This document shows, one piece after another, positions 1,773 through 57,030 of a stretch of 59,881 bases of DNA. Where the stretch lies: the IMG/VR virus record IMGVR_UViG_3300043958_000214, one strand, 5' to 3'. Numbering within the stretch: the stretch's first letter is position 1; each line of letters begins with the position of its first letter. The notes under the pieces were generated by a model. It had not been told where the DNA came from and did no database searches. It saw nothing but the letters and a program-made list of their open reading frames with translations. The translations under genes were made by a program, and so were the position numbers. The stretch is from a virus.

Positions 1773-3107
1773 ATGGGGAGCTACAACGACCAGCAGCCCC
1801 GCTTGCTGGCAGGAGCGCCGGGAGCCGGCAGATGGACTGGCACGCCTCACGCCTGCGACGAGATCGACACCCTCGACACCCCCGCGCCCGACCAGTGGAC
1901 GCCGTATGAGCATGCCAGCGACGTGTGGGCGGACGGGCCCTGGGACATCCGCATCCGCGGGACGCGCGACATGGAGGAGGCGCTCCAGCGTGTCAGTGAG
2001 GCCAATGGGCGCCTCGAACGCGCTGGAATCACCGATCGATTCACCTTGGAGCGCTCACGCCCGCTGAAGCTCATCGAGCACGGGCGCCCTACCACGTCGT
2101 GGATGGTGAGGCTCAACCGGCCCGTCATCTCCTACAAGGGCTGGTCGTTCGCCTCCGAGCTCGAATATGACGCGTCGGGCGCGATCATCTCCCACGCCTC
2201 CGTTCCGGGCCATGTCCCCGACATCATCGAATGCGAACACTGCCACACCTCGATCGCCCGTACGAAGACCTACATGCTCATCCATGAGGACGGCACGGAG
2301 ATCCAGGTGGGATCCACCTGCGTACAGAACTATCTCGGGATCCGGCCCAAAGGATTGTGGAGCCTCGACGCTGCGCTCATCGACGAGTACGGGGTGGACG
2401 AGCCCATCGACGACGCCGAGGAGGACACGAGCTATAGCGCCAGTTTTCCGGTCCTCGGCCGCCAGGACGAGGTGCCGGCCCGCGCCGTCCTCGCTGCCGC
2501 CCTCGACATCACGTCAGGCGGCACGAACTGGGTGAGACGGGAGGACACGCGAGAAGGTGTCGGCACGTCCGACATCGTCAAACAGGAGATCAAGGACTTC
2601 GGCGGACACTGGGAGGACGGCGCGAACGACCCCCGAATTGATGACGTGATCCGGGCTGTCGACGACATGCCGGGCGACACCGAGTACGCCCAGAACCTCA
2701 AGAAACTCGCCCACACCCGGGTCATCTCCTACAAGCACGCAGGCTTGCTGGCGTCAGCAGTCACCGTGTACGCGCGGCGCCGACGCGCAGAGCGTGCCCC
2801 AGCGCCCGCCACGCCGGGCTTCATCGCCGAGGAAGGACAGAAGGTCCCCGAAACCGAGGCGACTGTCATGTCGGTGCACGAGTTCCATGGCTACGACACG
2901 TATAAGCATCGTGAGGCAACGACGCGCATGGTCATCATGCGCGATCCTTCGGGACACGCCATCAAATGGACGACGGGCAGCAGGAACGTCCCCGAAGAGG
3001 GGGCGAGAGTGAGGCTGACCGGCGGGAGGGTGAAGGGCCATGGCAACTACAAGGGTGAGGACCAGAGCGTCGTGACCCGCCGGACGTTTGACCCGATCGA
3101 CGCCTGA
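1773..3107 (+). CDS. Hypothetical phage/plasmid protein with Zn-ribbon (CEHC..VGSTC) and possible C-terminal OB-like domain; divergent leader
   Basis: 444-aa ORF with GC-type codon bias; CCGCACAA-N8-ATG upstream; N-terminus YNDQQPR..GAGRW..H..DEIDTL resembles the shared leader. Confidence 0.7.
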   Translation: MGSYNDQQPRLLAGAPGAGRWTGTPHACDEIDTLDTPAPDQWTPYEHASDVWADGPWDIRIRGTRDMEEALQRVSEANGRLERAGITDRFTLERSRPLKLIEHGRPTTSWMVRLNRPVISYKGWSFASELEYDASGAIISHASVPGHVPDIIECEHCHTSIARTKTYMLIHEDGTEIQVGSTCVQNYLGIRPKGLWSLDAALIDEYGVDEPIDDAEEDTSYSASFPVLGRQDEVPARAVLAAALDITSGGTNWVRREDTREGVGTSDIVKQEIKDFGGHWEDGANDPRIDDVIRAVDDMPGDTEYAQNLKKLAHTRVISYKHAGLLASAVTVYARRRRAERAPAPATPGFIAEEGQKVPETEATVMSVHEFHGYDTYKHREATTRMVIMRDPSGHAIKWTTGSRNVPEEGARVRLTGGRVKGHGNYKGEDQSVVTRRTFDPIDA

Positions 3108-3180
3108 GGGGCGTCGGGTCGGGGCCGCAGCTGGACGAGTGGTTGCGTTCGACGGGTGCCGGTGTCGTGGGCTCCGACGA

Positions 3181-3471
3181 TTACGCTGCCAGGTGCGGAT
3201 ATCGGGAACGGAACTGCTTGTCCCTGAGGACGCCGACGTCTCCGTTTTCGTCGCGGGTCACCCAGTATCCGGGGCGGACCAGGACGTTGCCTGCGGGAGT
3301 GCGGGCCTCGAATACCCTGATGTCGCGCGTCGAGATCTCTGGATCCCGGTACTCGGCGCCCTCCGACCAATCGCGGATGCGCAGAAGCTGGGAGGTGGAC
3401 CCGTCGAAGCGGACCGCCTCGATCGCCTCGCCTTTCAGGCGCAGGAACGTGTTAGACATTGTCGTCCTCAT
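3181..3471 (-). CDS. Small phage-type hypothetical protein (PGDYG-like)
   Basis: EAVRFDG ... PGYWVTRDENGD..RDKQFRSRY pattern typical of a small phage protein family; true start may be MSNTF. Confidence 0.55.
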   Translation of the reverse strand: MRTTMSNTFLRLKGEAIEAVRFDGSTSQLLRIRDWSEGAEYRDPEISTRDIRVFEARTPAGNVLVRPGYWVTRDENGDVGVLRDKQFRSRYPHLAA

Positions 3472-4909: not shown

Positions 4910-7900
4910 TCACAGGGGGATCGTCCGCCAACATCTCCCTTCGACGTCAAGATCCCCTTTCAGCCAGGACAGCGCGCCCGCCGACGCCTTCTCACCGACG
5001 AAGGCGGGGTGCGCTCCGCCGGGGCCGGGGTGGGCCCACGTCCCCTTGCTCATCAGGTCGACGTCTGCATCCGAGTAGCCGGGGTGGGCGGGGTTGATTG
5101 CGTCCACGTCGGGTCCGAGGCCGCCGATGCTGCGCGGATCACGCCATGGGCGCCGGGCCGGAAGGGCCGCTTCGTCGTTCGCGGACACGTCCAGGGAGTC
5201 GATGGAGTCCGCGACGAGCTCGGTGACTGACGCTTCTTCGGTCACCGTCTCGCCCGTTTCGGTCGTTCGTTCCGTCACCACTTTGCGGATCTGGACGCGC
5301 CCGGTCACGACGACGGGGTACCCGATCCTCGGTTCCGCGCCTCGCTGTTCGAGGGCTTCGAGCGACCTCTGGAACATGATGCCGCCGACCCGGGAGCGGT
5401 CCCTGCCCTCAACCTCGATGCGGGCGAATCTCGACCTCTTCCCCGTGCGCTTCTCGAATCCCGTCAGGATTCCGACGACGCGAAGGGTGTCGCGGTCGTG
5501 GGCGTCGTGGAGGCGAGAGGGGCCGACCAGTGGTGGCATCGAGGTCACGCCCAGGCTCCGGAAGTAGCCGTCGTTGTCGCGGATCAGGTCGAGGATTGCG
5601 GCGTGCTGGGAGGCCATGGGGTGCTCCCCCATCGTCACTCCCAGCCGCAGGCGTTGACGGAGGTCCCGCTCGAAGGGCCCCCATTCGGCGGGGATCCTCA
5701 GCTCGGGTTCGAGGCGCGCCACCCGGGCCTCCATCGCCATGCCGAGGCGCGTCCCGCCGAGGGAGTCGAGGGCTCCCGCCTCGATGAGTCCTTGGACGTC
5801 TCCGGTGGTGAGGACCTTGTTGTTGACGCGGTCCATGAGGTCGGTCAGGGAGGTGAACGGCCCGCGCGCCTCCCGCTCAGCGATGATCTCCTTGGCTGCG
5901 GCGCCGACGCCCTTGATCTCGCCGAGGCCGAACCGCACCGTGTTGGAGCCGTCCGGCGCGGTCTTGAACTGGGAGGAGTTGACGTCCGGGGCCAGGATGG
6001 TGATGCCTTCGGCTGTCAGGGATCGGAGGATCTCCGACCTTTTGTCGTCTCTTCCGGTGTGGGCGAGGACGGCGGCGGCGAACGCGGCGGGCCAGTTGCC
6101 TTTCATGTAGGCGGTCTGGTAGGCGACGTACCCGTATCCGCACGCATGTGACTTGTTGAACAAGTATGAGGCTGAGGCTTCGAACGTGGTCCACAGTTTG
6201 TCCAGAGTCGACTGCTGGAACGGGGTGCGGGTCGGATTGTCGCCTGCGAGCGCGCCCGCGAACATCACCTCCTTGACTTGGGCCATCAGCTCGGCCTTCT
6301 TCTTGGAGAACGCTTTGCGCAGCTTGTTCGTGTATCCGCCGTCTAGACCTCCGATCGCGGTCCCCAGTTGCATGATCTGCTCCTGGTAGACGATTGTTCC
6401 GAACGTGGGGTCCAGGACGGAGGCGATGATCCTCTGCTCGGCGGGGTTGGTTGTCAGGTAGTCGTAGGAGACTGGGTCGCGCCCGTTCTTCCGGTCCGCG
6501 TACAAGGTGTGCATGCCCGCGGCCATCGGCCCGGGCCGGTAGAGGGCGACGAGGGCCGTGAGGTCGTCCCAGGAGTCCGGCTGGACGTTCATGGCGAGGT
6601 CGCGCATGCCCGAGGATGAGAGTTGGAAGATGCCCTCGGTCCGCCCCTCGCAGATCGTGCGGAAAGCCTCACGATCCCGCCGGATCGCCTCCGGGCTTGA
6701 CGTGTCTCCGGGGACGACATGAGCGATGTCCACTCGCTCGCCCGTGGTCTGTTCCACGTAGTCGGACGTGAGGTGGAGGATGTCGAGCGTGATCAGGCCG
6801 AGGACGTCGAGTTTGAGGAGCCCGTAGGCGTCGAGGTCGCCGCCCTCCCATCCGATGACGCGAGGCGCTCCCTCGACGACCTTGCCCTTCTTGCGTTCGT
6901 AGTACATCGGGACGAGGGAGTCGAGCGGCTCGTCGGAGATGATGGTGGCGCAGGCGTGCGTGGAGTTGTTGCGCACCACGTCCTCCAGTGTCCGGGCGAT
7001 CGAAATGAGCCGATCCCCATCTTCTCCCATGGTGGAGAGCTGGCGTCGGAATGGCTCACCGAGCGCGAAGCCCGGATCGAGGACGTCCGACAGTGGTGCG
7101 GGCTTGCCCTGGTTGACCGGGATCGCTGACGCGAGCTTCTCTCCTTGGGAGTCCAAGTTCAGCGTCCTAGCCGCGTCCTTGATGGCGCCCCGCGACTTGT
7201 CCAGTCCGAATGTCCCGACGCGGGCCACCACGTCTGCCCCGTACCTGACGGTCAGGTAGTGGAGGATCTCTTGGCGGCGTTCCTTCTCGAAATCTGTGTC
7301 GATGTCGGGGAGGCCGATGCGGGACGGGTCGAGGAAGCGTTCGAAGAGAAGCCCGTGGGCGAGGGGGTCGAGCCGGGTGATGCCGAGGACGTAGGCCGCG
7401 CATGACCCGCCTGCGCTTCCGCGACCGGGTCCCGTCCAGATCGGTTTCTTCTGCCCGGGCTTGCCCTGCGGGTACTCCGGGCAGGGGTATCCGCGCTCCG
7501 AGTTCGCCCACTCGATGAGGTCGCGCAGGATGAGGAAGTAGTCGGCGGTTCCAGCGCCGTTGATCACCTTCTCCTCCCATGCCATCCGCTGGGCGATATC
7601 GCGTCGAAGATGGCCTGGGCGCGCAGGGTCATCGCCGTACTTCTCGAGCGCTCCGGCTTTCAACAAGTCATGGAAGTACGTCTTCGAGTCCTCGTATCCC
7701 TCGGGGAGGGGGAACTTGGGGAGACGCTGGTGCGGGGCCGGCATCAGGTCGCCGTCCTCGTGTCCGGCCTCCTGGGCCGAGCGCCGGATCCGCAGGGCGA
7801 GCCGGTACGTGGCATCGCACGCTTCCTGCCACCAGTCCTCGTCGTGGAGGACGCGCATCTCAGCCCCCGTGCGGTAGTAGTACCCCTCCCCGTTGAAGGT

Positions 7901-10808: not shown

Positions 10809-11579
10809 TCCGGGGGCGTTGTCGAGGTAGTAGGTCACCCATGGTGGAACGGCTGCTGGGGGTTCGGAGACTTTCCATTCGTCGTTGTGGCGGGTCATGG
10901 TGAGTTGGGCGGGGGCTCTCTCCCCCATGGGGGTGAGTCCGGGTGTTGTCGTGTCGCCGATCATTGGGATGTACCACACGGTCACGTGGTAAATGTCTTC
11001 ACGGTTTTCTGCGGTGGGGTCGGTGGGGTTCGTGAGGTTGGTTTGGGCGCGGAAGCGGCTTGTTGTCTTTTCGTTTCCTGTCCAGGGGCCGAGCAGTGTG
11101 GGGGATGTCGGGTCGGTGTCCTTCGCGTCGTATTCGGCTTGCAGGTCGTTGGTCCCGTAGCGGTGGACGGCGGTGAGGAATGCGGTCCATGGGGAGGGGT
11201 CGCTGGGGTTGATGTCCCATGCTGTGGTGACGAATGCGCGTGCGATGCGGCTCGCGGCGATCGCGTCTTCCGCACTGACGGCGGAGGAGGCCGGGATGGA
11301 TAGGGTCTCGTCGCCCTCCACGGGAATGGCCCCCTCTGGGGCGAGCCCGTTTTCTCCGGTCGGTGTGAAGGTGTCGGCGCTCGGCGCCGGTGTCGGTGTG
11401 TTCATCGCTCCCGACTCCTCATCGTGCGTGACGACGTAGGTCGGTGAGGACTGTCCGGGCTCGGCCCCTGAGGCCTGAACGTCCCCTCGATGGCTCCACC
11501 ACGCTCCGCCGACCGCCAGCCCGACGGTGAGGACGATCCCCGTGAAGACAAGGGCGTCGATCCCCTTTCTGCGGCTCAC
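10806..11579 (-). CDS. Membrane-anchored conjugation-associated protein (TcpC/VirB8-like position)
   Basis: N-terminal TM helix, linker, ARAFVTTAW helix and terminal WKVS strand; overlaps the hydrolase stop. Confidence 0.55.
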   Translation of the reverse strand: MSRRKGIDALVFTGIVLTVGLAVGGAWWSHRGDVQASGAEPGQSSPTYVVTHDEESGAMNTPTPAPSADTFTPTGENGLAPEGAIPVEGDETLSIPASSAVSAEDAIAASRIARAFVTTAWDINPSDPSPWTAFLTAVHRYGTNDLQAEYDAKDTDPTSPTLLGPWTGNEKTTSRFRAQTNLTNPTDPTAENREDIYHVTVWYIPMIGDTTTPGLTPMGERAPAQLTMTRHNDEWKVSEPPAAVPPWVTYYLDNAPG

Positions 11580-12817
11580 TTGTTGACCCTTCCGACGTAG
11601 TTGAGCGGTGTCCCCCAGATGGTGGTGACGTGCACCGTCGAGCCCGGCTGCGGGGCCTCAATCATTTTCGAGCCCCCCAAGTAGATCGCGACGTGGTAGA
11701 TGACCTTGCCGTGCGCCCAAAAGATCAGGTCGCCCGGTTGCGCCTTCGACCATGGCACGTGGGCCGTGACTTGGGACTGCTGGGCGGACTGGTGGGGGAG
11801 CTCGACGCCCGCTTGACGGTACGCCCACGTCACCAGCCCCGAGCAGTCGAACGAGTCCGGACCCTCAGCAGCCCAGATGTAGGGTTTCCCAATCTTCGTT
11901 TTCGCGGCTGCGATCGCGTCTGCTTGGAGGTCGCCGGTGCGCGAGATCCCGCCCCCGCCCATCTCATACGCCGTCGCCCCCGCGATGATCGCTGCCACGT
12001 AGTGCTGAGTCTCGGCGTAAGGCGGGATCCCGTGATAAGTCCGGACCGCTCCCGACCCCGCGTTATAGGCGGCCAAGGCGAGCTCCAACGGGCTGCCGAC
12101 GAAAGGCTCGCCCGCGGACTGCCAGGCGCGGATCTGGGCGACCAGCCCGCACATGTAGTTACCCTGCGTCCAAATCGCATCGATCGGATTGAGGATGTCA
12201 GCGCGCCCATCCCCATCGCCATCCTTGCCGACCGCCGACCACGTCGCGGGCATGAACTGAGCGATCCCACGAGCCCCGGCAGTACTCCCCGCACTCGGGT
12301 TCCAATGCGACTCCTGGTTGATCTGGGAGGCGAGAATCGGGGCGGTGATCTCCGGGCAGATCGACCCCGCCCTCAACACAATCTCCACGTACTCCGCGGG
12401 CACGTTCGTGATACCCCCGCCGACACCCATCAGGTCATCCTGCTTGGCGACAGCCGGGTTCAGCACAGTCGCCTGAGCGACCGTCTCCGCGATCGACGAC
12501 ACCACCGCGAACATGACGAGAATCGAGGCGAGAACCGCAGCAACGCCAGCCAACATGACGTAGCGGAAACCACGCGAACCAGCGACCTTCGAAGCAGCAG
12601 CACCCGCAGCCTTCCCAGCCACGACATTCCCCGTCGCAGCCGTCGCCGCAGCCTCAGCCGCCGCCCCCGCGGCGCTCGCGGCAAGTGAGGATGCCTTCTC
12701 CCCCGCCGAACTGTCCTGATCCCGCAGGACAGATGCCGTATCTACCGCGAGGGCGAGTGCCCCGCCTCGCCCCGGACCCAACGTGGGCCGTCCGGCGCTG
12801 GGTCCGGGCTCGGGCAT
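11576..12817 (-). CDS. Bifunctional lytic transglycosylase + NlpC/P60 peptidase (CwlT/TcpG-like conjugation hydrolase)
   Basis: QINQES, ARGIAQFMPATW, ALAAYNAG (SLT); PYIWAAEGPDSFDCSGLV, PGDLIF, HVAIY (NlpC/P60); TM anchor. Confidence 0.92.
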   Translation of the reverse strand: MPEPGPSAGRPTLGPGRGGALALAVDTASVLRDQDSSAGEKASSLAASAAGAAAEAAATAATGNVVAGKAAGAAASKVAGSRGFRYVMLAGVAAVLASILVMFAVVSSIAETVAQATVLNPAVAKQDDLMGVGGGITNVPAEYVEIVLRAGSICPEITAPILASQINQESHWNPSAGSTAGARGIAQFMPATWSAVGKDGDGDGRADILNPIDAIWTQGNYMCGLVAQIRAWQSAGEPFVGSPLELALAAYNAGSGAVRTYHGIPPYAETQHYVAAIIAGATAYEMGGGGISRTGDLQADAIAAAKTKIGKPYIWAAEGPDSFDCSGLVTWAYRQAGVELPHQSAQQSQVTAHVPWSKAQPGDLIFWAHGKVIYHVAIYLGGSKMIEAPQPGSTVHVTTIWGTPLNYVGRVNK

Positions 12818-13756: not shown

Positions 13757-16700
13757 CTAGACGCTGTTACGCATTCTTTTTCTGCTCTCAAGGTTGTATT
13801 TGTATGACGACCTTGAGTCCTGCTGGAGGACGTGAATGCGGTCCAGCGCTTCTTCGAATTCGTGTTGGAAGCGGTCGGCTTCATCCTGCTTGCCGCGACC
13901 GAGGGCCTCGTCGCGTTTCTTCTCGAGAGAATCCAGCGTTTTCCGTAGCTCGACCACCTCGGCATAATCGTCTGGCCGAGTCTTCGCAAACCGCGCATCA
14001 GACTCACCCGAATCTTGCCACCGCTTCATGAGCCGATGGGACATGTCATCCGCCACCTCGACTGGCGCAGGCTTACCGTCAGCCTGCGAAGCGGACGCGA
14101 CGGGAGTCTCATAGTGTCGCTCTAGTGGCGTGTTCATTGACACGTCCACATCGGCCTTGGAGGGCTCCGGGGCCTTGGGCGTCTCCTTCTCGGGGGGTTT
14201 CTCACTCGGAGCCTCGCTTCCGGATGCCTCCCCGGCGGCACTCGCTCCCTGTTTCCTTGCCTCCTCCACCGCGGCCGCATCATCACGAATGCGCGCGACC
14301 TCGGCGAGCAGGTCTTTTTCGTGGTCCTGCGCCACCTCGTCGCGGCGTCCCCGGTATAGCTGCCTGCCGGCCAGAGCGGCGACGACGGGTGCCGCCGTTC
14401 CGGCTGTCGCTCCGATTGCCAGGGCTCCCACGCCAGCCTTCGCCGCTGTTACGGCGATCGCCCGGGCCCGCTCGCCCCTCGACGCGCGATCCCATTTCTC
14501 GCCCGCCAGGCCGATGGCCCGCTTCGCGGTCGGGGCCGTCCTCCGGGCGACGCTACGGATGGTGGCGCCCACAGCCTTGGGAGGTGTCGCAAAGACTGCT
14601 CCCGCCCGCCGCGCCGTCGAAAGCTCCCGCCATTCCGCCTCGTTCAGGCCCACAGCGTGGAGCCCGCCTGCCTTGGCGAGCGCCGCAGCGCGTCCGCCCC
14701 GACCGAGTCTGCGCCATGCGTCCCTGTCTGCCACACCGGCAGCGCGCCGCGCTTTGTCGCCCACCACAGCCAGTCCGTCGCCGGTGAGCTTCCCGGCTTT
14801 GGCTCCGATCCCCGCTGCCTCTTCGGCTGTGATATCGGAGGGTTTCTCGCCGATCGATTTCGCCCCGGCTTGCACGCGCCCCGGCATGGTCCTGACGCCG
14901 GCGACCGCTTTCCTCTTGCGTTCTTCTGCCTTGAGGGCGCGTAGGGCCGCAGCGCGTTCGCCGAGGTTCTTCTCCGCCTGGGCTCGCTCGTCTGCGGTCA
15001 TGGGCTTGCCGTCTTCGGGGAGGCCCGCCGCGTCGGCCATTCCGCCTTGGCCCTTCTTGAGCCCGTGGTCGGTGGCCGAGGCCTTCGCAGTGGAGCCCGA
15101 GAGGCTGTTCTTCGCCGTGTCCACGGCCCGCTTCGTGCCCGTCTTCGCGACACCTTTCGTGCGGTCCCACAGTTCGGAGAGCGCGGCTCCGCCCACGGCT
15201 CCGCTCATGCTGCCGAAGGCGAGCGCGCCACGGACGGACAGGGGGTTGGGCATGTGGAGGAGATCGGTGAACAGTTTCCCGATGATCCAGATGGCTGCAA
15301 GGGGCGCGACGGTGCCGACGAGCATGGAGGTCATGTTCGTGGACGCGGGCGTCACGGTGAGAGCCGCGGCGAACTGGTTGGCAGGCGTGGCGGAGGTGAC
15401 GCCGCCGCCGACCATGGAGGAGATGAGGGAGGTGATGAGGACCATGAAGGCGAGGATGAGTGAGTACCCCCAGGAGATGAACGTCATGCCGAGGAGTCCC
15501 TTGAAGAACTTCTCGACGAGCTTGTCGTCGGCTTTCCCAGGCCACAGGCTGACCAGGAGGACGATCATGACGAGGCCCAGGTAGATGAGCATCCCGATCT
15601 TGGTGACGATCACGATGATGCTCATGACGCCGAACACTGCGAGATCAATGAGCGCTGTGATGGCGAAGAGGAAGGGGGCGATCGACCCGCCTGGGGCGGA
15701 CTCCCCGTGCAGGGCCATCGTGAAGGCCCGGGCTTCGGGTGAGGCGTCCTTCAGCGAGCTGGTGATGTTCGCCTGCTTGTCCTTGATGTCGAGGACGGTT
15801 CCCTCACCGCCTGAGGCGTCGGCGGCCTCGGTCCACCACGCCTGGCATTGCTTCGAGACGTCGTCGGCGGAGGCTCCGTTGAGTCCTTGCCAGGAGTCGT
15901 CGAGAGACCAGCGTCCTCCACCGTCCGGGTGGCAGGCGGCCCACCCGACCATGGCGCGGTCAACAACCTCGTCCTGGGGAGCCGCGTCGTCGCCGGTGCC
16001 GAGGACGTTAGCTGGGCCGAAGGCGAGCGAGAGTTTCTGGGAGCTTCCCGGCACGAGGGCGTCGTTGGCTGCCCGCTGGACGGCGTACTGGGAGCTGGGA
16101 GAGACGTTCGCCTGCCACTCCAGGAGGTGGCAGTACGTGCGGTACGCGGTGGGTCCGGAGTCGAGTTGCATCGTGATCCACGCATTGAGGCCGGTCTGCT
16201 CCCACAGTCCGTTGAGCGCCATGACGGCGCCGGTGGTCCCGCGGTTCACGCCCGCCTTGTTCTTGTACTCGGCGCGCAGGGCGTCCGTGTAGGCGGAACA
16301 GTCGAGCGGCTTCCCTGAGTCGACCGTGATGCCTTCGATGTCCGCGGAGTCGACGATGCTCTCGGTGATGCCGTCGGTGGAGACGTTGACGAGGGTGGAC
16401 ATGGTCTGGGCGATCCAGCCGGGAGACATCACCGCAGGCCTGTAGTCGTCTCCGCTGCCCGTGGACATGCCGGCGCTGGCGACCATGGTCGACATGAACG
16501 CGACAGTGAGGACGACGCGCCCGAGGCTCCGGAAAGCGCGCGTGCCCTCGTTCTTCCTCCAAGCGGCCCACATGGCGGCGATGACGGCGGCCGCGACGAG
16601 GATCGCGGCCAGAGGCGAAGTGATGAGCGCGTGTCCAAGGCGGCTAGACAGGTGATCCATCTGGGCGCCGGCAGAGCGCAGGGGATCCATGTTTGTCGCA

Positions 16701-17116: not shown

Positions 17117-17129
17117 GGGCCTCTCCGTG

Positions 17130-17588
17130 TCAGTGCCTCTTCGGGGAGGCGAAGAGCGAATCGACACGCGCCGCCTGCTCGGCGTCGCCGAGCCGAGGCT
17201 TTTCATCCGTACCGACCGGAACGGAAGATGAGGTGATGACGAGGTTGTCGCTCATCATCGGGTCGACGACCTGCATGCCCATGACGAACTTCCCGACCAT
17301 CGCTTTCGCCTTCCGGCGGTCGATCAACGCCTTGTACTGGGGGAGCCGGCGCGCGTCGTTCGTCCTGGAGGCGAACAGCCACAGGCTGGCTCCGACGACG
17401 ATCGGAGGCACGACGAGGGCGTAGCTGTCCACCAGCGGCCAGAAGACGCCGGTGAGGATCAGCCCCGGGATGATGGAGGCGAGGCCCACTAGCAGGAACT
17501 TCCGGTTGAACTCCACGGTCGCGAACGTGACGGTCCGCTTCTCGTTCGCTCGGCGCCCCGTCAGGTCGGTCAGGTCGTAGACGTTCAT
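17130..17588 (-). CDS. TcpE/PrgI-like two-TM conjugation protein
   Basis: VYDLT N-terminus, two TM helices, position between pilin-like and VirB6-like genes. Confidence 0.55.
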   Translation of the reverse strand: MNVYDLTDLTGRRANEKRTVTFATVEFNRKFLLVGLASIIPGLILTGVFWPLVDSYALVVPPIVVGASLWLFASRTNDARRLPQYKALIDRRKAKAMVGKFVMGMQVVDPMMSDNLVITSSSVPVGTDEKPRLGDAEQAARVDSLFASPKRH

Positions 17589-17969: not shown

Positions 17970-18111
17970 GATGAGCCTGTTTCCTTTCAGGAGCGTCCGG
18001 CTGGTGCCAGACCGTCACACCCACTAATGCGGAGGGCCCCGGAGAAGGGGACGCCCCGCACGGGGCCTGTCAGAACTCCTTGTGCGGGGCGTCCCCTTCT
18101 CCCAGAGTCGC

Positions 18112-41883: not shown

Positions 41884-41950
41884 GACTCTCCTTTTGCGGC
41901 GGTCGCCAAGGTTCGCCTGTCCACGCCGGCGGCGCGCCTAGTCAGGCTTT

Positions 41951-43036: not shown

Positions 43037-43059
43037 GACTCTCCTTGTGCGGCGTGTAC

Positions 43060-43863: not shown

Positions 43864-44328
43864 ACCCCGTCTTGTGCGGCGCAGATCGATTCGAGAGACT
43901 CAATCGCCTCGCACGGCAGCAACCCTAGAGAGGAAGTCGTCCCTGGCATCCTCGTCGAACCACCGGACGTTCGCCTCCATGTCCTCTAGCCGATCCGCGA
44001 AGTACGTCAACTCCCGTCGGACCAGCTCCGCGTCAGGACGTTCAGAGGCGGCGCTGAGAAGGATGTTGCTCGAGAGCCCATCGAACGCATCGAGTCCAGA
44101 CCCCCCGAGCAATTCTGCCGCGTCGTGGGCGGCCTGCAGTCGTTCGACCATCGCGCGACGATCCTCAGCAGTCATCACCTCACGTTCGCGGGTACCCGGC
44201 CCGATGCCAAGCTCCACCCCCTCCGCGTCGGCGTGGTCCTTCGCGCTGTACTGCCCGACATTGGCGGGGTTCTTCCCGCGTGGGTGCAAGGTCTCGTCGT
44301 AAGTACTCATACCCCGTCTTGTGCGGCG
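43765..44328. repeat. 117-nt perfect direct repeat (43765-43881 and 44212-44328) covering box + leader
   Basis: Base-by-base identity from CTCCACCCCC to TTGTGCGGCG; sequences diverge immediately outside. Confidence 0.9.
43900..44310 (-). CDS. Leader-tagged hypothetical protein (array unit 4)
   Basis: Same leader as unit 5, unrelated short helical body. Confidence 0.8.
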   Translation of the reverse strand: MSTYDETLHPRGKNPANVGQYSAKDHADAEGVELGIGPGTREREVMTAEDRRAMVERLQAAHDAAELLGGSGLDAFDGLSSNILLSAASERPDAELVRRELTYFADRLEDMEANVRWFDEDARDDFLSRVAAVRGD

Positions 44329-44348
44329 GCGGGACACCCAGACATCTC

Positions 44349-45359
44349 TCACCCGGCGCGGCGGCTCAAACCGCTCCGCCGCCCTTCCGCAACCCACATC
44401 GGCGTGTTGTACGCGGAATGGACGAGCCCCGCGGTCTGATCCCACCCGTACCCGTCCTCCTCATCGTCAAGACGGACGCGACGCGCATCGGGGAGTTCCT
44501 CATCCCCCGACCTCGCCCCCACGGACATGCTCGCCCACCCAGACATCACCACGTCGTAGCCTGAGCCGTTCAACGTGTCGATCAGGACGACATGAGGGTT
44601 CTCGAAGCTCAGGACCCGCTCCACGTCACCGGGAATGGCGTCCCGCACATCCCCATTCCAGATGACGTCCAACCGGACTCCTTCATGCCAAGTCTCAGGG
44701 CCCTCAGACACGAGATCTCGCACAGCCTCAGCATTGCCCTCATCCAGCATGTCGATACCCGCTGCGGACAGTTTCTGCCTCAACAGCTTCTCCCGGTTGC
44801 GCACCAAACGGCCCCACGCCTTCTCGTCGCCCGGGTTCGCCCAATACGTCTCGGCCCCGGCAAGCGTGCCATACCCCGAAATCGGAGCCCGCATCAACCT
44901 TGGTCCCACGTTCCGCAAGAGATCACGCTCACGGTCGGAATCATCGTGATCCCAGATATAGTCCCTCAGGCGCTCGCGGTCCTCGTCGGCGTCATCGAGG
45001 GCGGTGAAGTCGGTTCCGTGCTCGTCGTCGAAGCGGGCGATCGCCTGGTCGATGTCGTCCGCGTCTGCCTCGAGATAGCGGTTGCCGAGCTCTTCCATGT
45101 ATGTAACTTCGTCGCCGGAGAAGGCGAGGCGGAGGAGGTCGTCCGGCATCTCCTCATCAGGTCCCGTGTACGCCAGGTAGAACCTCTCGCCCGACGGTTC
45201 AAGCCCGTCCAGAGCCTTGACGCGCAGATCATGTCTCGACTCCCCTGACCCGACATCAAGTTCGACGCCTTCGGGCTCCGCATGGTCTTTGGGACTGTAC
45301 TGCCCGACGTTGTCGGGGTTCTTCCCGCGTGGGTGCAAGGTCTCGTCGTAAGTGCTCAT
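44349..45359 (-). CDS. Leader-tagged hypothetical acidic protein (array unit 3)
   Basis: MSTYDETLHPRGKNPDNVGQYSPKDHAEPEGVEL; CCGCACAA-N8-ATG. Confidence 0.8.
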   Translation of the reverse strand: MSTYDETLHPRGKNPDNVGQYSPKDHAEPEGVELDVGSGESRHDLRVKALDGLEPSGERFYLAYTGPDEEMPDDLLRLAFSGDEVTYMEELGNRYLEADADDIDQAIARFDDEHGTDFTALDDADEDRERLRDYIWDHDDSDRERDLLRNVGPRLMRAPISGYGTLAGAETYWANPGDEKAWGRLVRNREKLLRQKLSAAGIDMLDEGNAEAVRDLVSEGPETWHEGVRLDVIWNGDVRDAIPGDVERVLSFENPHVVLIDTLNGSGYDVVMSGWASMSVGARSGDEELPDARRVRLDDEEDGYGWDQTAGLVHSAYNTPMWVAEGRRSGLSRRAG

Positions 45360-45409
45360 ACCCCGTCTTGTGCGGGGATGGACGCCGGAAGGCCCGTGAG
45401 AGACCAGTC

Positions 45410-45844
45410 TCAGCCGCCGTAGACCGCGACGTTGTAGTCGGACAATGCGTCCTTGAACTCACTTGAGCCGGTGTCGTAGCGCGTCGCGGCCACTGCGTCG
45501 CCTTTGATCAGGTCGGCGTTGGAGTAGACGCGACCGCAGTCGGGGCACACCGCGTACTCTTCTTCGTCGCCCGATCCGAGGGAGTCAGGGTTCAACCGCC
45601 CGTTCCGGTCTGCTGCCACCCAATCGTCGGTCTCGGAGTCGTTCCCGCACTCGCAGATCTGGTTTTCCCCGCCATCGATCACGCGAGCGATGCCGTCAAC
45701 GGGCTCTGGGGAGAAGGGGTAAGCGCCCTTGATCGGGGTGCCCAACTCGACGCCTTCAGGCTCCGCATGGTCTTTGGTGCTGTACTGGCCGATGTTCTCG
45801 GGGTTTCCGCCGCGCTGATGTTTCGTCTCGTCGTAGATGCTCAT
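45410..45844 (-). CDS. Leader-tagged small Zn-finger protein (array unit 2)
   Basis: MSIYDETKHQRGGNPENIGQYSTKDHAEPEGVEL; CECGN..CPDCG. Confidence 0.8.
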   Translation of the reverse strand: MSIYDETKHQRGGNPENIGQYSTKDHAEPEGVELGTPIKGAYPFSPEPVDGIARVIDGGENQICECGNDSETDDWVAADRNGRLNPDSLGSGDEEEYAVCPDCGRVYSNADLIKGDAVAATRYDTGSSEFKDALSDYNVAVYGG

Positions 45845-45888
45845 ACTTCCCCTTGTGCGGCGGGCACGGGCTGTCCGGTGTCCGCCGT

Positions 45889-46725
45889 CTAGAACGATCG
45901 CGCGACCTGGCACAGCCGCTTAGCCTCAGCGTCGGTAATCACCGAGTACTCGGAGAACCCGTTGTAGCCGCTCTTTCGGCACCGGTACAGCGCGAGTCCC
46001 CAGTCCGAAGCCGACAGCGGTAGGCGGTCGAGGACCTCTCCAGCACGCTCGTAGAACTTCGCGGAAAGCCGGGTTGCGTGGGCCATCGCGGCGTCTGTGG
46101 GTGTTTCGCACCCTGCGCGTTCGGCTTCCGCGACCGCGTACATGGTCCCCGCCTCGACGTTTGCATCGTCGACGCTCTCACAGCGGAATGCGAGGCGTTC
46201 ACCCAGCGATGCCGCCGGCTTCGACATCTCATCATTGAGGGGCCGGACACGGTTCTCGAGCATCCAGTCGAGGTCCTTGTCCAGGCTCATCCCCGTCGGG
46301 AAGACCGTGGTGTGGGCGTATGCCTCGAACCCTTCTTGAGGGGCCTTCTCGAGCCCGTAGAGGGATTGAAGAAGCCGACTGATGGTGTTGCGATGCGCCG
46401 CCACATAGGCCGCACCACGGCCCTTGTCCGTCAAACCCGCACGCTCCACGGCGGTGGGGGCACCCACGTCATACACGACAGTGACGGTCGTAGCGCCGTC
46501 ATTCGCCCGCTCGGCGTGAAGACCCTTGACGAAGGTCAAGTCGTCCCACCTGAGCAGGCCGGCCGTGAGATCCAAGCTCCCGCCGCGCTCGATCAGCGCA
46601 CCCTCAAGAGAGGACGGGGTCGCGAGCTCCAGGTCGCGGTCGTCTGCGTACCCCTTTCGGCTGTACTGGCCGATGTTGTCGGGGTTCCCGCCACGCTGAT
46701 GCTTCGACTCGTCGTAGATGCTCAC
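45889..46725 (-). CDS. Leader-tagged hypothetical protein (array unit 1), paralog of 40987..41883
   Basis: MSIYDESKHQRGGNPDNIGQYSRKGYADDRDLEL; CCGCACAA-N8-GTG. Confidence 0.8.
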   Translation of the reverse strand: MSIYDESKHQRGGNPDNIGQYSRKGYADDRDLELATPSSLEGALIERGGSLDLTAGLLRWDDLTFVKGLHAERANDGATTVTVVYDVGAPTAVERAGLTDKGRGAAYVAAHRNTISRLLQSLYGLEKAPQEGFEAYAHTTVFPTGMSLDKDLDWMLENRVRPLNDEMSKPAASLGERLAFRCESVDDANVEAGTMYAVAEAERAGCETPTDAAMAHATRLSAKFYERAGEVLDRLPLSASDWGLALYRCRKSGYNGFSEYSVITDAEAKRLCQVARSF

Positions 46726-47286
46726 ACCTCTCCTTGTGCGGCGGGCACAGGGTGCTGGGTGAATGTCGTCTAGAACGATCGCACGACCGCGCGTCTTCGG
46801 TGGCGGGTCTGGACATTCCGAGGTTCACGTCCTAGCCACGAGGCGCGTCGCTCACTAACGCCATTATGCGGGATAGGCCACGACCTGTGGCACTTTCAAC
46901 GTTCTGGCCGGACACCGAGAGCTTCAAAACCGCACCGGTTTCAGCCTACAGAAGGCCCTGAAGACCGCGCACCCCCCCCCCCAATGGCATCACCCTGCGG
47001 ATGCCGGGTTAAACACGCGCCGACCCCACCGAAATCCTCCATACCTCACCAGCCTCATGACAGCCCACATACCTGACTGCAGACCGAACTAACTTGAAAC
47101 AAGCCGGGTGTAACCCTCGAACCGTTACTTCCTCAGGCAAGCGAAGAAGGGTGGGGGCCTCGAATCTCTTCCCGGCTGGTGGAGATCGCCAAGACCAGGG
47201 TCTCGTGCTAAAGGTTCCCGATTCAAGAGGGGCATTAGTCTAGATCCTCAATATAATTGATTCATATTAGCGCCATTCGTCGATTC

Positions 47287-48264
47287 TCATATGAGAGCGA
47301 GTAGGTCTGACCGGATGTGGAACATGGGCTCATCCCAGTCGAAGCCAAGAATTCTTAGCTGTTCGTCGAGAAGGGCTGCCATCTTCAACCGAGCCTCTTG
47401 CTCCGACTCTCGCGAAAGAGCGTATTCACCAGAGGGCAACGAATTTAGTAATGTGCGAAATTCGCTAAGCCATGCTGAAAGATTCTCCCTGGTGTTCATA
47501 TAGCGGAGGCCCCTCGTATCTAGCGGTAATTCAGCACTGGCAACTGTTTCGTACGCAACGCAGTATGCCATCTGTTTGAGTGCGATCAATACTTGGGAGC
47601 CGACCTCGAATACCAGCCTATTCACGTCTCTATGCACTTGGTAACTGGTTACAACTTTGATCAGAGCATCTTCGAGCCAAGCCACAATCTCACTTGGATT
47701 CCAGTTAGACTCATCGGTAGATAACCTGCGTAACGAGCCAAGCTCGGCTCTGTACTCATCAATAATCGCTGCGGCGGCGGATGTCAGGTTCAGCGTTTTC
47801 CAGCTGTCATTCTCGTTAGACCGGGATGACTCGCCACGTTGGTATATCGAGACGTGGTTCATCTCATGTACTAGCGTTCTTAAGAATAAGAACGCGGCAT
47901 CAGGGTTCGTCTCGTAATCGAGAGCTTTCTCGAAGATATCCGCACGAAGGAGGACGGAAGAGCCATCGCCGTCATGAATAGTCTTGCCGGCCACGAGACC
48001 TTCTCCTCGAAGAAGGTTGAACGAGCGTGCCGCCTCGGTGTCGCGCAGACGATCTTTGGTGGATTTCACAAAGTCACCTGTGATCACTAACGTGACGTTC
48101 TGGGGAGACTTCGCAATCGCTGTGGCTAACTTAATGCAGACCAGGAGAAATTCCGGCAACGGGGAAGAGGTAACGAGCTCAACAAGTGTTTCACTGACCG
48201 ATTCGAACTGAACTTGTGCGGTAGGCAGATCGTCTTCGACCATGATTTTCCCTTCGTCGTCCAC
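47287..48264 (-). CDS. Hypothetical protein with HExxH zincin-like motif, low-GC cargo
   Basis: TLVHEMNH..IIDEYRAE; visibly AT-richer than the backbone. Confidence 0.65.
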   Translation of the reverse strand: MDDEGKIMVEDDLPTAQVQFESVSETLVELVTSSPLPEFLLVCIKLATAIAKSPQNVTLVITGDFVKSTKDRLRDTEAARSFNLLRGEGLVAGKTIHDGDGSSVLLRADIFEKALDYETNPDAAFLFLRTLVHEMNHVSIYQRGESSRSNENDSWKTLNLTSAAAAIIDEYRAELGSLRRLSTDESNWNPSEIVAWLEDALIKVVTSYQVHRDVNRLVFEVGSQVLIALKQMAYCVAYETVASAELPLDTRGLRYMNTRENLSAWLSEFRTLLNSLPSGEYALSRESEQEARLKMAALLDEQLRILGFDWDEPMFHIRSDLLALI

Positions 48265-54027: not shown

Positions 54028-54306
54028 TCACGCGGCGTCGAGCGCAGCGTGTAGCGCCTCCATGTTCTGGAAGTCCAGAGTGGTATCCCCGCACCGTAAG
54101 CGGAGTGCCCCGCCGCCTTTCGGCGCCGGGCCGTGGTCGGGCTGTTCGATGACGCGGTCCACGCACTCGACGGGGACTCCCGCGTCCTCGATGCCGAGGA
54201 GGCGGCGAGCTGCAGCTTGGGATGCGGCGTCAAGGGGGTGGCCGAGAGTGAACAGCTGTCCCCCGCCGGGTTCTGGCACGAGGACCTTTCCGATGTTCGG
54301 GTTCAT
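54028..54306 (-). CDS. Small hypothetical protein
   Basis: CCACAAC-N6-ATG; ATGA overlap with the upstream gene. Confidence 0.55.
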   Translation of the reverse strand: MNPNIGKVLVPEPGGGQLFTLGHPLDAASQAAARRLLGIEDAGVPVECVDRVIEQPDHGPAPKGGGALRLRCGDTTLDFQNMEALHAALDAA

Positions 54307-55013
54307 GCCTGTGTTGTGGGACACGAACGAAGCTCACGCGTCGGATGTGCGGGCTCGAGGAGTGTGATGGAGTCGGAGGGCTTGCTCCATCCTCCAAAGG
54401 TCTCCCACGCCCGGGTGTCGTCTTCATCCCCCCTGGTCTCCCAGTCGTCCTGGGTCCGGTCCCAGGCGCTGGCAAGACGGTTCAAAACGATCCGCGGGTC
54501 TCCTGAGACGTGGATCGCGTCGGTTGCTTCGTTCTCGCCTTTGCCCTGCTCGGCGACGGTGATGTCGGTGGATCCGGTAGTCTTGTCGAAGACGATGGAA
54601 ACCCGGAGGTCATGTGTGACGTTGTCGATCTGAGCGGCGGGCACGCTCTTGTCGTTGGCGACTAGTGTCGCGTCGCACAGGCCCTGCCCGACGGCGTGGA
54701 AGTCCGCCGGTGTCCCAGGGAAGGGGACTCGCCCGGTAGAGGAATGAACGCGCCCGTCGGGCGTGCGCACGCTGGTGACCAAGGTGGCGTCCCCTGGCGC
54801 GTCGAAGCAGACGTCGAGATTCCGCTCATTGCCGGTTGCGCGGATCGACACGCAGGTATTGTGCCCGTCGTCGGTGACCATGAGGTGGGAGGAATCCACA
54901 GGGGCCGCGCCGAGTTCGACCTCCTCCGGCTCAGCATGGTCTTTCGGGCTGTACTGGCCGGTGTTCGCGAGGTTCTTTCCCCGCGGGTGCTTGGCCTCGT
55001 CGTAGACGTTCAT
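54303..55013 (-). CDS. Leader-tagged hypothetical protein
   Basis: MNVYDEAKHPRGKNLANTGQYSPKDHAEPEEVEL; CCGCACAA-N8-ATG with no SD. Confidence 0.8.
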   Translation of the reverse strand: MNVYDEAKHPRGKNLANTGQYSPKDHAEPEEVELGAAPVDSSHLMVTDDGHNTCVSIRATGNERNLDVCFDAPGDATLVTSVRTPDGRVHSSTGRVPFPGTPADFHAVGQGLCDATLVANDKSVPAAQIDNVTHDLRVSIVFDKTTGSTDITVAEQGKGENEATDAIHVSGDPRIVLNRLASAWDRTQDDWETRGDEDDTRAWETFGGWSKPSDSITLLEPAHPTRELRSCPTTQA

Positions 55014-55356
55014 GTCGATTCTTGTGCGGCTGGTTCAATTTCACTGAACGACAACGAACTGATACGATTTCTCTTTGTTGAGCACCGATCGTTAGTAATG
55101 CTCAGCGTCTTCGATGATCGACCTCAGGCCACGAACACGATGCTAGTTGGCCTCTCCCCCACCGCCATGCGCACGCCCGGCGGTCGCTGCCCGCTCACAC
55201 AGTCCTTCCACCTCACCTTTGTCGAGATGGGCTTTCCTCTTCGCCTTGGTCCTACGCGCCAGGCGGCGGATCCTGCTTTTCGCGGTCACCGGGCCTCAAC
55301 TCGTCCTGATTCCATGCCCCCACCTATGCGGAGGGGTTCCCCGCACACAAGGAGGC

Positions 55357-57030
55357 ATGAACCGGACCTTCGACGAACAGCACCCCAGGGATATCGGCAA
55401 CGGACAATTCCGGAGCAAGGAGCACGCCGAGGCGGACATCGACCTCCTCACGCCCGCGGGATGGGAATCCCCCAACGAGGAGGAGGACGACGAATTCGAC
55501 TGGGTACGGATCGACTCCCTGATGGGCCAGGACTTCCACCTGAACCCCGCCCGGACCGCCTCCCTGCCGAAGATGAAGGCCGACGACACCGTCGCTCAGA
55601 TGACGAGCAAAGTCATGAGCTATGTCGCGCGGACCCAGGACCTCTCTGGGATGTCCGACGAAACGGTCGCCGAGTCGGCAGGATTATCCTGGAGCCCGAA
55701 GGAAATACCGGATCGTCTCAGGCGCGCTTTCGGGCTTCCCGAAAGCGAACGCATCGTGACCGCCGTCAATGCGTCCGGCAGGCCCGTCTATCTCTCGGTC
55801 GGGAACGCTTTCACGCGCACCGGATCCTTCGTCGGAGGTTTCGATACCGCTAACGTCGCTCAGCGGATCGTCGCAGACCGCTTCAAGGAACGCTTCACAG
55901 CCGAGCACCCCGAATTCACGCCCAAGGAGATCAACGACCTGTTCCGCAGGCTGGAGGACAAGTCGTACCGCGGAAAGAAATGGGCTCACCTTTGGCAGGA
56001 GGCGTACCTTCCGCCAACAGACCGCCGGACCTTGGCCGCGGCCTGTGCCCCTGACCTAGTGTCGACAAACCCCGCCCTGACCCGTGAGGATCTCGACCGG
56101 TACGTCCGCGAGATGGAGCCCGCAGAGATCCGCGAACGCTTCTCCCGGCTTCCCGTTGAGGAGGTGCCTGGCGTGGTGGATGGGCATGCTGCCCAGGTGC
56201 CGGCTTATCTTGCCAAGGTCGGTCCGATTCGCCAGTACTCCGCGGTGGATGCTGTTGAGCGGCATCTGCGCGGTGAGAGCACGTACGCGAAGGGGGCGGC
56301 CCTCAATCGGGCGTACCGGGCGTTTTTGGAGGAGGAGGTCGCCGTCGAGTACGACTATCAGCTCCAGCGCAAGTACGTTCGGGACAACAGCGTCGCGCAT
56401 TCTGCGACGGTCTTCGAGGAGAAGAAGCACGTTCCGCAGTCGTATGTGGATGCTGCGGAGTCGAGTGTCTTCCGTAGGAGCGGGGACTTCTCTCACGTCG
56501 AGCTGGATGAGGATGTGGATCTGGCTCGGGTTGGGCAGATTGAGCGGGAGTATGCCCGGATTCGGAGTCTGCTTCCCCGGACGGGGCGGACGCCGACGTT
56601 GCGTTTCCGCAAGACTGGGCGCCATCACGCCAAGGGCGTGTATCACCCGCATGTGGACAATGTCGCTGTGGATCCTCGGAGCCCGTCGTCTTTCATCCAT
56701 GAGTACATCCACCACGTGGATCACACGGCGGGCGGGAGGAACATCTCCTCGAGTGAGGAGTTTCGTCCGATCCTCCGGGCGGTTCAGCGCAGCGTGGATC
56801 GGGAGGCTGGGTTGAGGGCGAAGTGTGATTACTACAAGACGCCGACCGAGGTGCTTAGCCGGACTGGGGAGGCTTACTTCTCGTGGAAGGGGTTGGGCGG
56901 GAGTCTCAACGGTACTGCTGAGGAGTATGGGGCGAACCCGGCGTATGTGACCTTGGAGCCGTTGAAGGGCGAGATCATCGCGTTTTGGGATGCGTTGCTG
57001 CCTGCGTTGGGGGCCGATCGTCCTGCTTGA
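55357..57030 (+). CDS. Leader-tagged zincin metallopeptidase / LPD1-like polyvalent-type protein
   Basis: MNRTFDEQHPRDIGNGQFRSKEHAEADIDL; LRFRKTGRHHAKGVY, SFIHEYIHHVD, YYKTPTEVLSRTGEAY. Confidence 0.75.
   Translation: MNRTFDEQHPRDIGNGQFRSKEHAEADIDLLTPAGWESPNEEEDDEFDWVRIDSLMGQDFHLNPARTASLPKMKADDTVAQMTSKVMSYVARTQDLSGMSDETVAESAGLSWSPKEIPDRLRRAFGLPESERIVTAVNASGRPVYLSVGNAFTRTGSFVGGFDTANVAQRIVADRFKERFTAEHPEFTPKEINDLFRRLEDKSYRGKKWAHLWQEAYLPPTDRRTLAAACAPDLVSTNPALTREDLDRYVREMEPAEIRERFSRLPVEEVPGVVDGHAAQVPAYLAKVGPIRQYSAVDAVERHLRGESTYAKGAALNRAYRAFLEEEVAVEYDYQLQRKYVRDNSVAHSATVFEEKKHVPQSYVDAAESSVFRRSGDFSHVELDEDVDLARVGQIEREYARIRSLLPRTGRTPTLRFRKTGRHHAKGVYHPHVDNVAVDPRSPSSFIHEYIHHVDHTAGGRNISSSEEFRPILRAVQRSVDREAGLRAKCDYYKTPTEVLSRTGEAYFSWKGLGGSLNGTAEEYGANPAYVTLEPLKGEIIAFWDALLPALGADRPA

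Follow-up and report, generated by a model that had tools for sequence, protein, structure and literature searches.

A portable N-terminal tag coupled to a private DNA box heads diverse genes of a putative conjugative-type element from Actinomycetota

The IMG/VR virus record IMGVR_UViG_3300043958_000214, a stretch of 59,881 nucleotides hereafter called the window, contains 14 genes that begin alike: an 8-nucleotide DNA box precedes the start codon, and a ~34-residue N-terminal peptide, hereafter the tag, precedes the body of the protein, its cargo. An original prediction made on this DNA had listed 14 leader-bearing starts, and all 14 coordinates translate as it described; we name each gene by the coordinate of its start. 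Ten of the genes, all on the minus strand, are headed by M-S-T-Y-D-E-x-x-H-x-R-G-x-N-P-x-N-x-G-Q-Y-S-x-K-D-x-A-E-x-E-x-V-E-L, here called canonical. More generally, the tag takes the form M-S-T-[FY]-[DN]-E-x-x-H-P-R-G-x3-N-x-G-Q-[FY]-x-x-K-x5-6-L, over ~34 residues. The 14 genes are as follows.

1757-3107, plus strand: box 1757-1764, putative decayed variant tag 1773-1874, 444-aa cargo
18112-19501, minus strand: box 19494-19501, canonical tag 19384-19485 (80 bits), 457-aa all-helical cargo
20976-22101, minus strand: box 22094-22101, divergent tag 21978-22085, ArdC-N single-stranded DNA-binding domain plus M78/IrrE-type zinc peptidase
36206-37193, minus strand: box 37186-37193, canonical tag 37076-37177 (85 bits), 323-aa cargo without family match
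37627-38482, minus strand: box 38475-38482, divergent tag 38359-38466, 279-aa cargo
40987-41899, minus strand: variant box CCGCAAAA 41892-41899, canonical tag 41782-41883 (83 bits), 298-aa cargo
41951-43052, minus strand: box 43045-43052, canonical tag 42935-43036 (88 bits), 361-aa acidic cargo
43060-43879, minus strand: box 43872-43879, canonical tag 43762-43863 (86 bits), 267-aa cargo
43900-44326, minus strand: box 44319-44326, canonical tag 44209-44310 (87 bits), 136-aa cargo
44349-45375, minus strand: box 45368-45375, canonical tag 45258-45359 (88 bits), 336-aa very acidic cargo
45410-45860, minus strand: box 45853-45860, canonical tag 45743-45844 (87 bits), 144-aa Cys-containing cargo
45889-46741, minus strand: box 46734-46741, canonical tag with GTG start 46624-46725 (73 bits), 278-aa cargo
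54303-55029, minus strand: box 55022-55029, canonical tag 54912-55013 (80 bits), 236-aa cargo
55341-57030, plus strand: variant box CCGCACAC 55341-55348, short divergent tag 55357-55446, 557-aa cargo with HExxH at residue 448

A peptide tag on unrelated cargo

A profile built from the ten canonical leaders and scanned against all six frames of the window recovered the same ten only, each at 72.7-88.2 bits; the next-best match was the ArdC-like gene (18.7 bits), and all others fell below 8 bits. The original prediction had added four divergent copies. A broader profile, made from 60 N-terminal tags retrieved from public data outside the window, bears out three of them: 22085 (E = 1e-11), 38466 (E = 1.5e-10) and 55357 (E = 2.9e-6). 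The fourth, 1773, is matched by neither profile and enters through orthology and the box. We keep it as a probable decayed variant because a box lies upstream, its Microbacterium orthologue is canonically tagged, and its N-terminus resembles the variant tag QPR..AGAP..G.[FW], which heads orthologues P0241 and P0242 of the 19485 cargo. A further orthologue of that cargo, P0063, is likewise tagged.

Selection acts on the peptide rather than on the DNA that encodes it. In the ten canonical copies, synonymous divergence over codons 2-34 is near saturation (mean pS 0.61), and mean nonsynonymous divergence (pN) is only 0.15. Conservation confined to the DNA, which the original prediction had named as grounds for abandoning its claim, is thus not what the copies display. 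DNA similarity among copies begins at CCGCACAAG, 8 nt 5' of the ATG, and stops at codon 34; peptide conservation likewise ends sharply at a Leu near residue 34, behind an acidic or Pro-rich stretch. The consensus fold of box plus tag reaches -3.4 kcal/mol without covariation, and no conserved RNA structure was found.

The tag is hydrophilic, as had been predicted, with a grand average of hydropathy of -0.5 to -1.5, a net charge of 0 to -5 and no hydrophobic stretch. A Sec or Tat signal peptide is ruled out, the h-region being absent from this hydrophilic, acidic sequence, and no tagged cargo contains a membrane-spanning segment. In an AlphaFold2 model of the 19485 protein, the only tagged protein folded, the predicted local distance difference test score (pLDDT) is ~31 over residues 1-51. 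This low value and the Pro/Gly/Asn-rich sequence fit an intrinsically disordered peptide. The cargo of the same protein, modeled from a 5-row alignment, has a mean pLDDT of 54, too poor for a fold search.

No family in Pfam-A, NCBIfam r20 or PHROGs v4 covers the tag and no LPD family matches it, in keeping with the earlier statement that no named family explains it; a match to an already characterized domain was not found. We also found no paper describing the motif, which appears to be undescribed in the literature. A J domain is a four-helix unit of ~63 residues with an HPD loop, and the tag was considered as a fragment of one (DnaJ, PF00226). We rejected this candidate: hhalign against three J domains gave 0.2% probability with only 'HP' aligned, and Pfam DnaJ gave no match. 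A truncated tag (...HPRGKNPANIGQYSPKDHAEAQGVDL) that lacks the M-S-T-Y-D-E start lies ~1.8 kb upstream of the window start on a sister contig (L010, ~6300-6420). It stands in an open frame beside a PIN/Phd toxin-antitoxin pair and is possibly a decayed cassette.

Behind the tag, the bodies are without mutual similarity except for 41883 and 46725, paralogues with 33% identity, so the claim of mostly unrelated bodies stands. The tagged proteins are single-cargo products of 136-557 aa, acidic (15-22% Asp+Glu), and two recognized domains occur together only in the ArdC-N and M78 peptidase protein. This is also the sole identified cargo, in one of 14 tagged genes; the other 13 received no function from Pfam, NCBIfam or PHROGs. 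Among the labels that the original prediction had attached to bodies, ArdC plus peptidase therefore holds up, with the peptidase of M78 type, and the sigma-like and LPD1-like labels found no support in Pfam, PHROGs or NCBIfam: the 19485 cargo matches no sigma-factor family, and the HExxH-bearing 55357 protein belongs to no Pfam or NCBIfam family. The C-terminal part of the 41883 cargo matches phrog_1915 (function unknown), and that of the 43863 cargo is 59% identical to the tagged protein P0111. A match to Pfam Phage_gene29 was weak (E = 0.002) and fell below the cut-off.

Three cargo families keep their tag between elements even though the tags are only ~45% identical: ArdC-N plus M78, DUF7007 and the 1773 body. 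The DUF7007 protein of this element sits just beyond the window. Tagged orthologues of the ArdC-N and M78 protein occur in Microbacterium sp. oral taxon 186 F0373 (42% identity) and in a Microbacterium metagenome-assembled genome (MAG). Other tagged Microbacterium proteins include one with a GmrSD_N domain and another with LRV repeats. A leader conserved as peptide on unrelated cargo, among it an anti-restriction ArdC-N protein with a peptidase, makes the tag the portable module that the original prediction took it to be.

The box ahead of the tag genes

All 14 tag genes are preceded by the box CCGCA[CA]A[AC], 8 nt from the ATG. The window has 16 copies of CCGCAYAA, where 2.8 would be expected, and 14 of the 20 CCGCA[CA]A[AC] sites in the window are those ahead of the 14 tag genes. 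Shine-Dalgarno-like bases in the gap between box and ATG are not conserved. Judged by this distribution, the box is nearly exclusive to tag genes, and tag and box together would mark out at least 14 soluble proteins as a co-regulated set. Four extra minus-strand boxes (CCGCACAA or CCGCATAA; 18080-18087, 40811-40818, 46864-46871 and 48214-48221) have neither a start codon at 8 nt nor a tag; they may be orphans, boxes of untagged genes or parts of small RNAs.

The arrangement recurs in distant relatives. A Microbacterium MAG has eight tag genes within 6 kb, mostly with CCGCAC 10-11 nt ahead of the ATG, and in Microbacterium F0373 all ten copies of the 11-mer CCGCACTCATG present in 240 kb lie 10-22 nt ahead of a tag gene. 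Because distant relatives share the same order of box and tag, the two form one conserved module across distant elements.

The fixed distance between box and start would suit a -10-like element with leaderless mRNAs, or a translational operator. On the Pseudarthrobacter plasmid pPA-B-2242 (L013, 19982-20003), a perfect extended -10, TGATATAAT, stands 7 nt ahead of the GTG of the tag gene. The arrangement is that of a leaderless mRNA and supports a reading of the CCGCAC box as a signal in the -10 position.

The element, its relatives and the wider motif family

The window has a high GC content (~0.58-0.70) and encodes Pol III alpha, a single-stranded DNA-binding protein (SSB), DnaK, a UmuC/ImuB-type polymerase, NrdD/NrdG, a RuvC-like resolvase, a YobI-type ATPase, restriction-modification genes and Cas6e/Cas7 of a type I-E system. 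Three further genes bear on conjugation or adjoin the tag genes.

13757-17206, minus strand: 1149-aa TrbL/VirB6-like protein, resembling TrbL/VirB6-like clusters and kept in the Microbacterium element
11576-12817, minus strand: cell-wall hydrolase with SLT and NlpC/P60 domains, which would suit a VirB1-type role in Gram-positive conjugation
22107-23891, minus strand: element-encoded DnaK (Hsp70), directly upstream of the tagged ArdC-like gene

Beyond the window end, a sister contig carries Cas3/Cse1/Cse2, an NAD-ligase, an apparently tRNA-rich stretch, SNF2 and DinG-like helicases, a G5 wall protein and a 1279-aa AAA_10 (VirB4-type) ATPase that scores 31.4 bits against a cut-off of 27.5 bits. 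The conjugation apparatus that the original prediction placed beside the tag genes is therefore present on the element as VirB4-like and TrbL/VirB6-like genes. The VirB4-type gene (L009, 4302-8141) lies ~50 kb past the window end and is intein-interrupted: residues 464-531 of its product match DnaB-type mini-inteins (E = 1e-15 to 1e-17). Homologues of FtsK-type ATPases with inteins likewise exist. We inspected ~128 kb around the window, out of a 192-kb contig, for virion genes, and saw no capsid, portal or terminase gene there. No oriT, relaxase or coupling ATPase was located for the window's element itself. From this gene content we concluded that the element is most plausibly a giant actinobacterial element of conjugative type, a plasmid or an integrative and conjugative element, rather than a phage that forms virions.

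Upstream of the window lie a class A penicillin-binding protein and the PIN/Phd pair; the former (transglycosylase, transpeptidase and PASTA domains), with a second NlpC/P60 protein, occupies L010 2723-4975 and is unusual cargo for a mobile element. The YobI-like P-loop NTPase (1315 aa, 30291-34238) stands on the opposite strand in the region's lowest GC (0.59-0.62) and looks like an inserted defense gene. At the other end of the window, the divergently transcribed tag genes (54303-57030) adjoin the Cas6e/Cas7 end (57338-59814) of the element's type I-E CRISPR-Cas operon. The segment 39840-40990 is present in four metagenomes as a diverged variant at 3-8 times the contig depth of its surroundings; its open reading frames have no Pfam family, it has no Rfam or tRNA match, and it is possibly separately mobile or widely shared. 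Across 36000-47500, contigs from four other sludge metagenomes break or diverge exactly at tag borders (37080, 43762, 43839, 45735 and 46742), and one sludge contig fuses the 44310 tag to the 37177 tag. Such breaks may stem from an exchange of cassettes between tags, or from nothing more than repeats interrupting the assembly.

A cultured relative, Microbacterium sp. oral taxon 186 F0373, carries 21-22 tag genes over 190 kb. The region is homologous to the window element (Pol III alpha 38% identity, VirB4-like 41%), has VirB6-like, TcpC-like, DinG-like, SNF2, ligase and SSB genes, and carries two FtsK/SpoIIIE ATPase genes next to the VirB4-like one. The whole F0373 genome gave no match to Phage_capsid or Terminase_6N. 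Among 400 other Microbacteriaceae species genomes sampled, four more have tags, and two of these have a VirB4-like gene 5-8 kb from the array and no capsid gene nearby. A sample of 400 genomes spread evenly over the class contained no match to the tag. So few tagged genomes point to rare and patchy elements, as expected of mobile elements. In these related Microbacteriaceae, the co-occurrence with type IV secretion system (T4SS) or capsid genes that the original prediction had wanted checked leans toward conjugation: a VirB4-like gene lies 5-10 kb from the tag arrays, and capsid genes are not close by.

Every tag-bearing element examined also encodes a protein of the Hsp70 system (window 22107-23891, DnaK; L001 7985-9163; L013 19291-19989; G001:C2:259570), which in three cases is near or beside tag genes. 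In L001, DnaJ is two genes ahead of the tag genes; on pPA-B-2242, a membrane-anchored J protein gene is immediately ahead of the tag gene; the Microbacterium element contains a J-domain gene. A complex prediction of the tag (36-row alignment) with the Microbacterium FtsK/SpoIIIE-type coupling-ATPase candidate (52-row alignment) scored 0.00, which speaks neither for nor against binding.

The motif extends well beyond these elements. Searching 1.84 billion representative proteins with the window-tag profile returned 245 matches at E<=1e-3, which include two kinds of protein. Of 65 small proteins (100-450 aa), 62 have the tag inside the first 30 residues, and the source, wherever known, is an actinobacterial genome or metagenome. 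Giant proteins, of up to 7334 aa, repeat the core [FWY]DExKHPRGxxxNxG[QE]F 2-16 times at a median spacing of 308 residues. Fifty-five mid-sized members of the giant class carry ART-PolyVal, ADP-ribosyltransferase, Topo IB, NUDIX, Zeta toxin, InPase, LPD1, MuF and DUF2213 domains and one portal, a set that corresponds, by domain content, to the repertoire of polyvalent proteins, which combine several disparate domains (2-15) in one polypeptide (PMC5512222). The top match, a protein of 3180 aa with six tags, is encoded on a 141-kb contig, where an HK97-type capsid gene follows 4 kb downstream.

Scans for the exact pattern picked out 25 IMG/VR contigs, in which the motif is either internal to large proteins or 50-90 residues away from their frame start, and also genomes of Planctomycetota, Clostridia, Alphaproteobacteria and Actinomycetota. 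A tblastn search with the 36-aa tag, a query too short for the method, found none in INPHARED phages and one weak match in PLSDB; a tag-alignment search of IMG/VR gave no confirmed match, although a degenerate DNA pattern did find the motif there. The common core, [FYW]-[DN]-E-x-x-H-P-R-G-x3-N-x-G-[QE]-[FYW], which we call the HPR-GQF header, stands N-terminal to a separate module or cargo in both protein classes, and 13 window genes match the tag profiles. By this likeness in sequence, the window tag and the header of giant phage proteins belong to one motif family.

A label for entry-stage proteins and its rivals

The tag probably labels proteins that act upon the element's entry into a new cell. 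We tentatively read it as a handling label for such entry-stage proteins, serving export with DNA via a conjugation channel and/or processing on arrival, and consider this reading nearly as apt to hold as to fail. Some partner would recognize the tag; the conjugation channel would pass the tagged proteins together with the DNA, their N-terminus leading, and/or they would be processed on arrival in the new host; modules of polyvalent type would here be encoded as separate genes, each with its own header. The reading builds on a tag that sequence comparison shows to be real, selected as a peptide, portable, box-linked, kept in related conjugative-type elements and common in motif to phage polyvalent proteins. 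It also draws on the VirB4-like (AAA_10), TrbL/VirB6-like, TcpC-like and FtsK/SpoIIIE-type proteins and wall hydrolases that the element and its relatives encode. The portable sorting tag of the original prediction is therefore plausible, with conjugative export favored over capsid packaging for this element. Its further proposal, a counter-defense cocktail, is reasonable by analogy with ArdC and polyvalent proteins; the ArdC-type cargo agrees with it and is the one identified cargo on which it rests, the others having no known function.

Should the tag prove to be an address or handling label, it would allow a sequence-based listing of the proteins that mobile elements send or deploy first in a new host, most of them without known function and likely counter-defense factors, and it would provide a portable peptide for protein delivery between Gram-positive cells. 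Several points weigh against an export label. Both the transfer of tagged proteins, as export or delivery, and the identity of a receptor are inferred only. The tag is acidic and N-terminal, unlike known T4SS signals, which are often basic and lie internally or at the C-terminus. One core motif serves capsid-forming phages and capsid-less conjugative-type elements in several phyla, which is hard to reconcile with a single vehicle-specific receptor; a partner-independent or host-directed function fits equally, and use in two vehicles favors an adaptor, a processing role or a post-entry function. The tag genes could simply be early-expressed leading-region genes, with no need of export (PMC11541004). 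The "invasion-stage" label itself leans mainly on ArdC, most cargo having no known function, and the inspection for virion genes covered ~128 kb of the 192-kb contig.

Several alternatives take up the use of one motif in two vehicles. The HPR-GQF header may be a vehicle-independent entry handle of phage heads and conjugative elements, working by intrinsic chemistry or through a universal host factor such as Hsp70 as modules emerge N-terminus first; in this actinobacterial lineage it would have been coupled to a private box to make one regulon, possibly with leaderless mRNAs. We regard this broader proposal as rather unlikely. A pro-peptide or processing handle, which we hold to be similarly doubtful, would provide docking and a cleavage site for an M78/MPTase-type peptidase of the element or a conserved host protease; cleavage is proposed to split giant-protein modules and, near Leu ~34, to free stand-alone cargo that becomes active only after entry. 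The motif lies exactly at module boundaries of the giant proteins, its ~300-residue spacing is comparable with stand-alone cargo of ~235 residues, conservation stops sharply at the conserved Leu after the acidic or Pro-rich stretch, and the tagged ArdC-N and M78 peptidase is kept in three elements; Iyer et al. propose that zincin-like peptidases process polyvalent proteins (PMC5512222). Yet the Pfam MPTase domain occurs in none of the 55 motif-bearing giant proteins scanned, a cleavage site alone leaves the extreme N-terminal position and 20 invariant-pattern residues unexplained, and the cleavage itself is purely predicted. It seems unlikely, too, that the tag recruits a highly conserved host factor after entry whatever the vehicle, for instance Hsp70 for refolding proteins unfolded by passage through a channel. 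A core kept across phyla and vehicles agrees with this, and the recurrence of Hsp70-system genes on tag elements (DnaK here, DnaJ in L001, J-domain proteins in pPA-B-2242 and Microbacterium) is suggestive; but the hydrophilic tag lacks the hydrophobic core typical of DnaK clients and is no J-domain fragment, plasmid chaperones are also explicable by remodeling of replication initiators, and adjacency may be inherited synteny of one lineage.

Other alternatives fare worse against the same evidence. We consider it quite improbable that the tag is a degron or timer that makes entry-stage proteins short-lived and clears them after establishment of the element: such a role would suit a disordered extension at the N-terminus of a co-regulated set, and trimming of the first three residues would expose the invariant aromatic as an N-end-rule residue, but no known actinobacterial degron is similar, the proposal is pure conjecture, and it does not readily account for the internal copies in giant phage proteins. 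Capsid packaging, the second option of the original prediction and the role of the T4 capsid-targeting sequence, is very improbable for this element. Relatives of the motif do occur in phage head-module proteins (portal, MuF and DUF2213 fusions), one of them beside a capsid gene; the stretch inspected here has conjugation genes instead of capsid, portal or terminase genes, and F0373 agrees. We give hardly any credence to a DNA- or RNA-level feature, in which the 5' module would serve cassette exchange as a homology arm, or enhance translation initiation, with the peptide incidental. The tandem array with its constant 5' end, the sludge contigs that break at tag borders or join two tags, and the box at a fixed distance from the ATG would suit it; near-saturated synonymous sites under a conserved peptide largely refute it, RNA structure and covariation are missing, the peptide is only ~45% identical in distant elements and internal in giant proteins, and repeat-induced contig breaks are expected from de Bruijn assembly.

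Comparison with known systems

The handling label that we tentatively favor has counterparts among signals for protein traffic. The T4 capsid-targeting peptide of IPI-III and Alt is cut off by a protease after delivery to the prohead. Like it and the capsid-targeting sequence of P1 DarB, the window tag is a short N-terminal peptide common to unrelated DNA-accompanying proteins; unlike them, it is three times longer and of other sequence, and neither capsid nor prohead-protease genes were found in the inspected parts of the element. A capsid-targeting system of T4 type, which belongs to capsid-forming phages with a prohead protease, was accordingly set aside for the inspected parts of the element and for the relative's genome.

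T4SS effector modules, such as Xanthomonas XVIPCD, Bartonella BID and C-terminal Arg-rich signals, are read by a conjugation-type coupling ATPase. They share with the tag the use of a common module on diverse cargo, and the genes of such a pathway are at hand: VirB4-like AAA_10 and VirB6/TrbL-like proteins here, FtsK/SpoIIIE ATPases in the homologous Microbacterium element. The known modules are C-terminal or internal, folded or basic, and Gram-negative, whereas the tag is N-terminal, acidic, putatively disordered and part of a Gram-positive-type system whose ATPase, as found in the Microbacterium element, is of FtsK/SpoIIIE type.

To our knowledge, leading-region genes have no common peptide tag or start-codon-proximal box. 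In other respects the window set resembles the leading-region anti-defense sets of Samuel et al. 2024 (PMC11541004): small genes cluster beside conjugation genes with an SSB, an ArdC-type protein and a UmuC/ImuB-type polymerase, and seem to be expressed as a unit. With no oriT or relaxase located, leading-region status of the window set is not established.

Polyvalent proteins are closest in motif. Iyer et al. 2017 argued that they travel with DNA, and also that ArdC and TraC1 are transferred in conjugation (PMC5512222). In giant proteins with ART-PolyVal, LPD1, InPase, Topo IB, NUDIX, Zeta and MuF domains, all hallmarks of the polyvalent class, the tag core lies between modules, and ArdC-N plus a zincin-type peptidase, which is a window cargo, is among the signature architectures of that class. 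The text of the polyvalent-protein paper does not mention the tag motif (PMC5512222). The window differs in that its modules are separate genes, each with the motif at the extreme N-terminus and its own DNA box. By the multi-domain definition the window proteins are not polyvalent, having one cargo per gene; among the signature domains (ArdC-N, MPTase, LPD, ART-PolyVal and others), ArdC-N with an M78-type peptidase occurs in one of 14 window genes.

Shared address-like peptides on mobile-element effectors, and polyvalent-protein systems, are thus of a kind already known. What is new here is a tag on a putatively capsid-less conjugative-type element, its tight coupling to a private DNA box kept between distant elements, and a cultured host, Microbacterium sp. 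oral taxon 186 F0373, in which the question becomes directly testable. If the handling label holds, one signal would link phage polyvalent head proteins with the effectors of conjugative elements.

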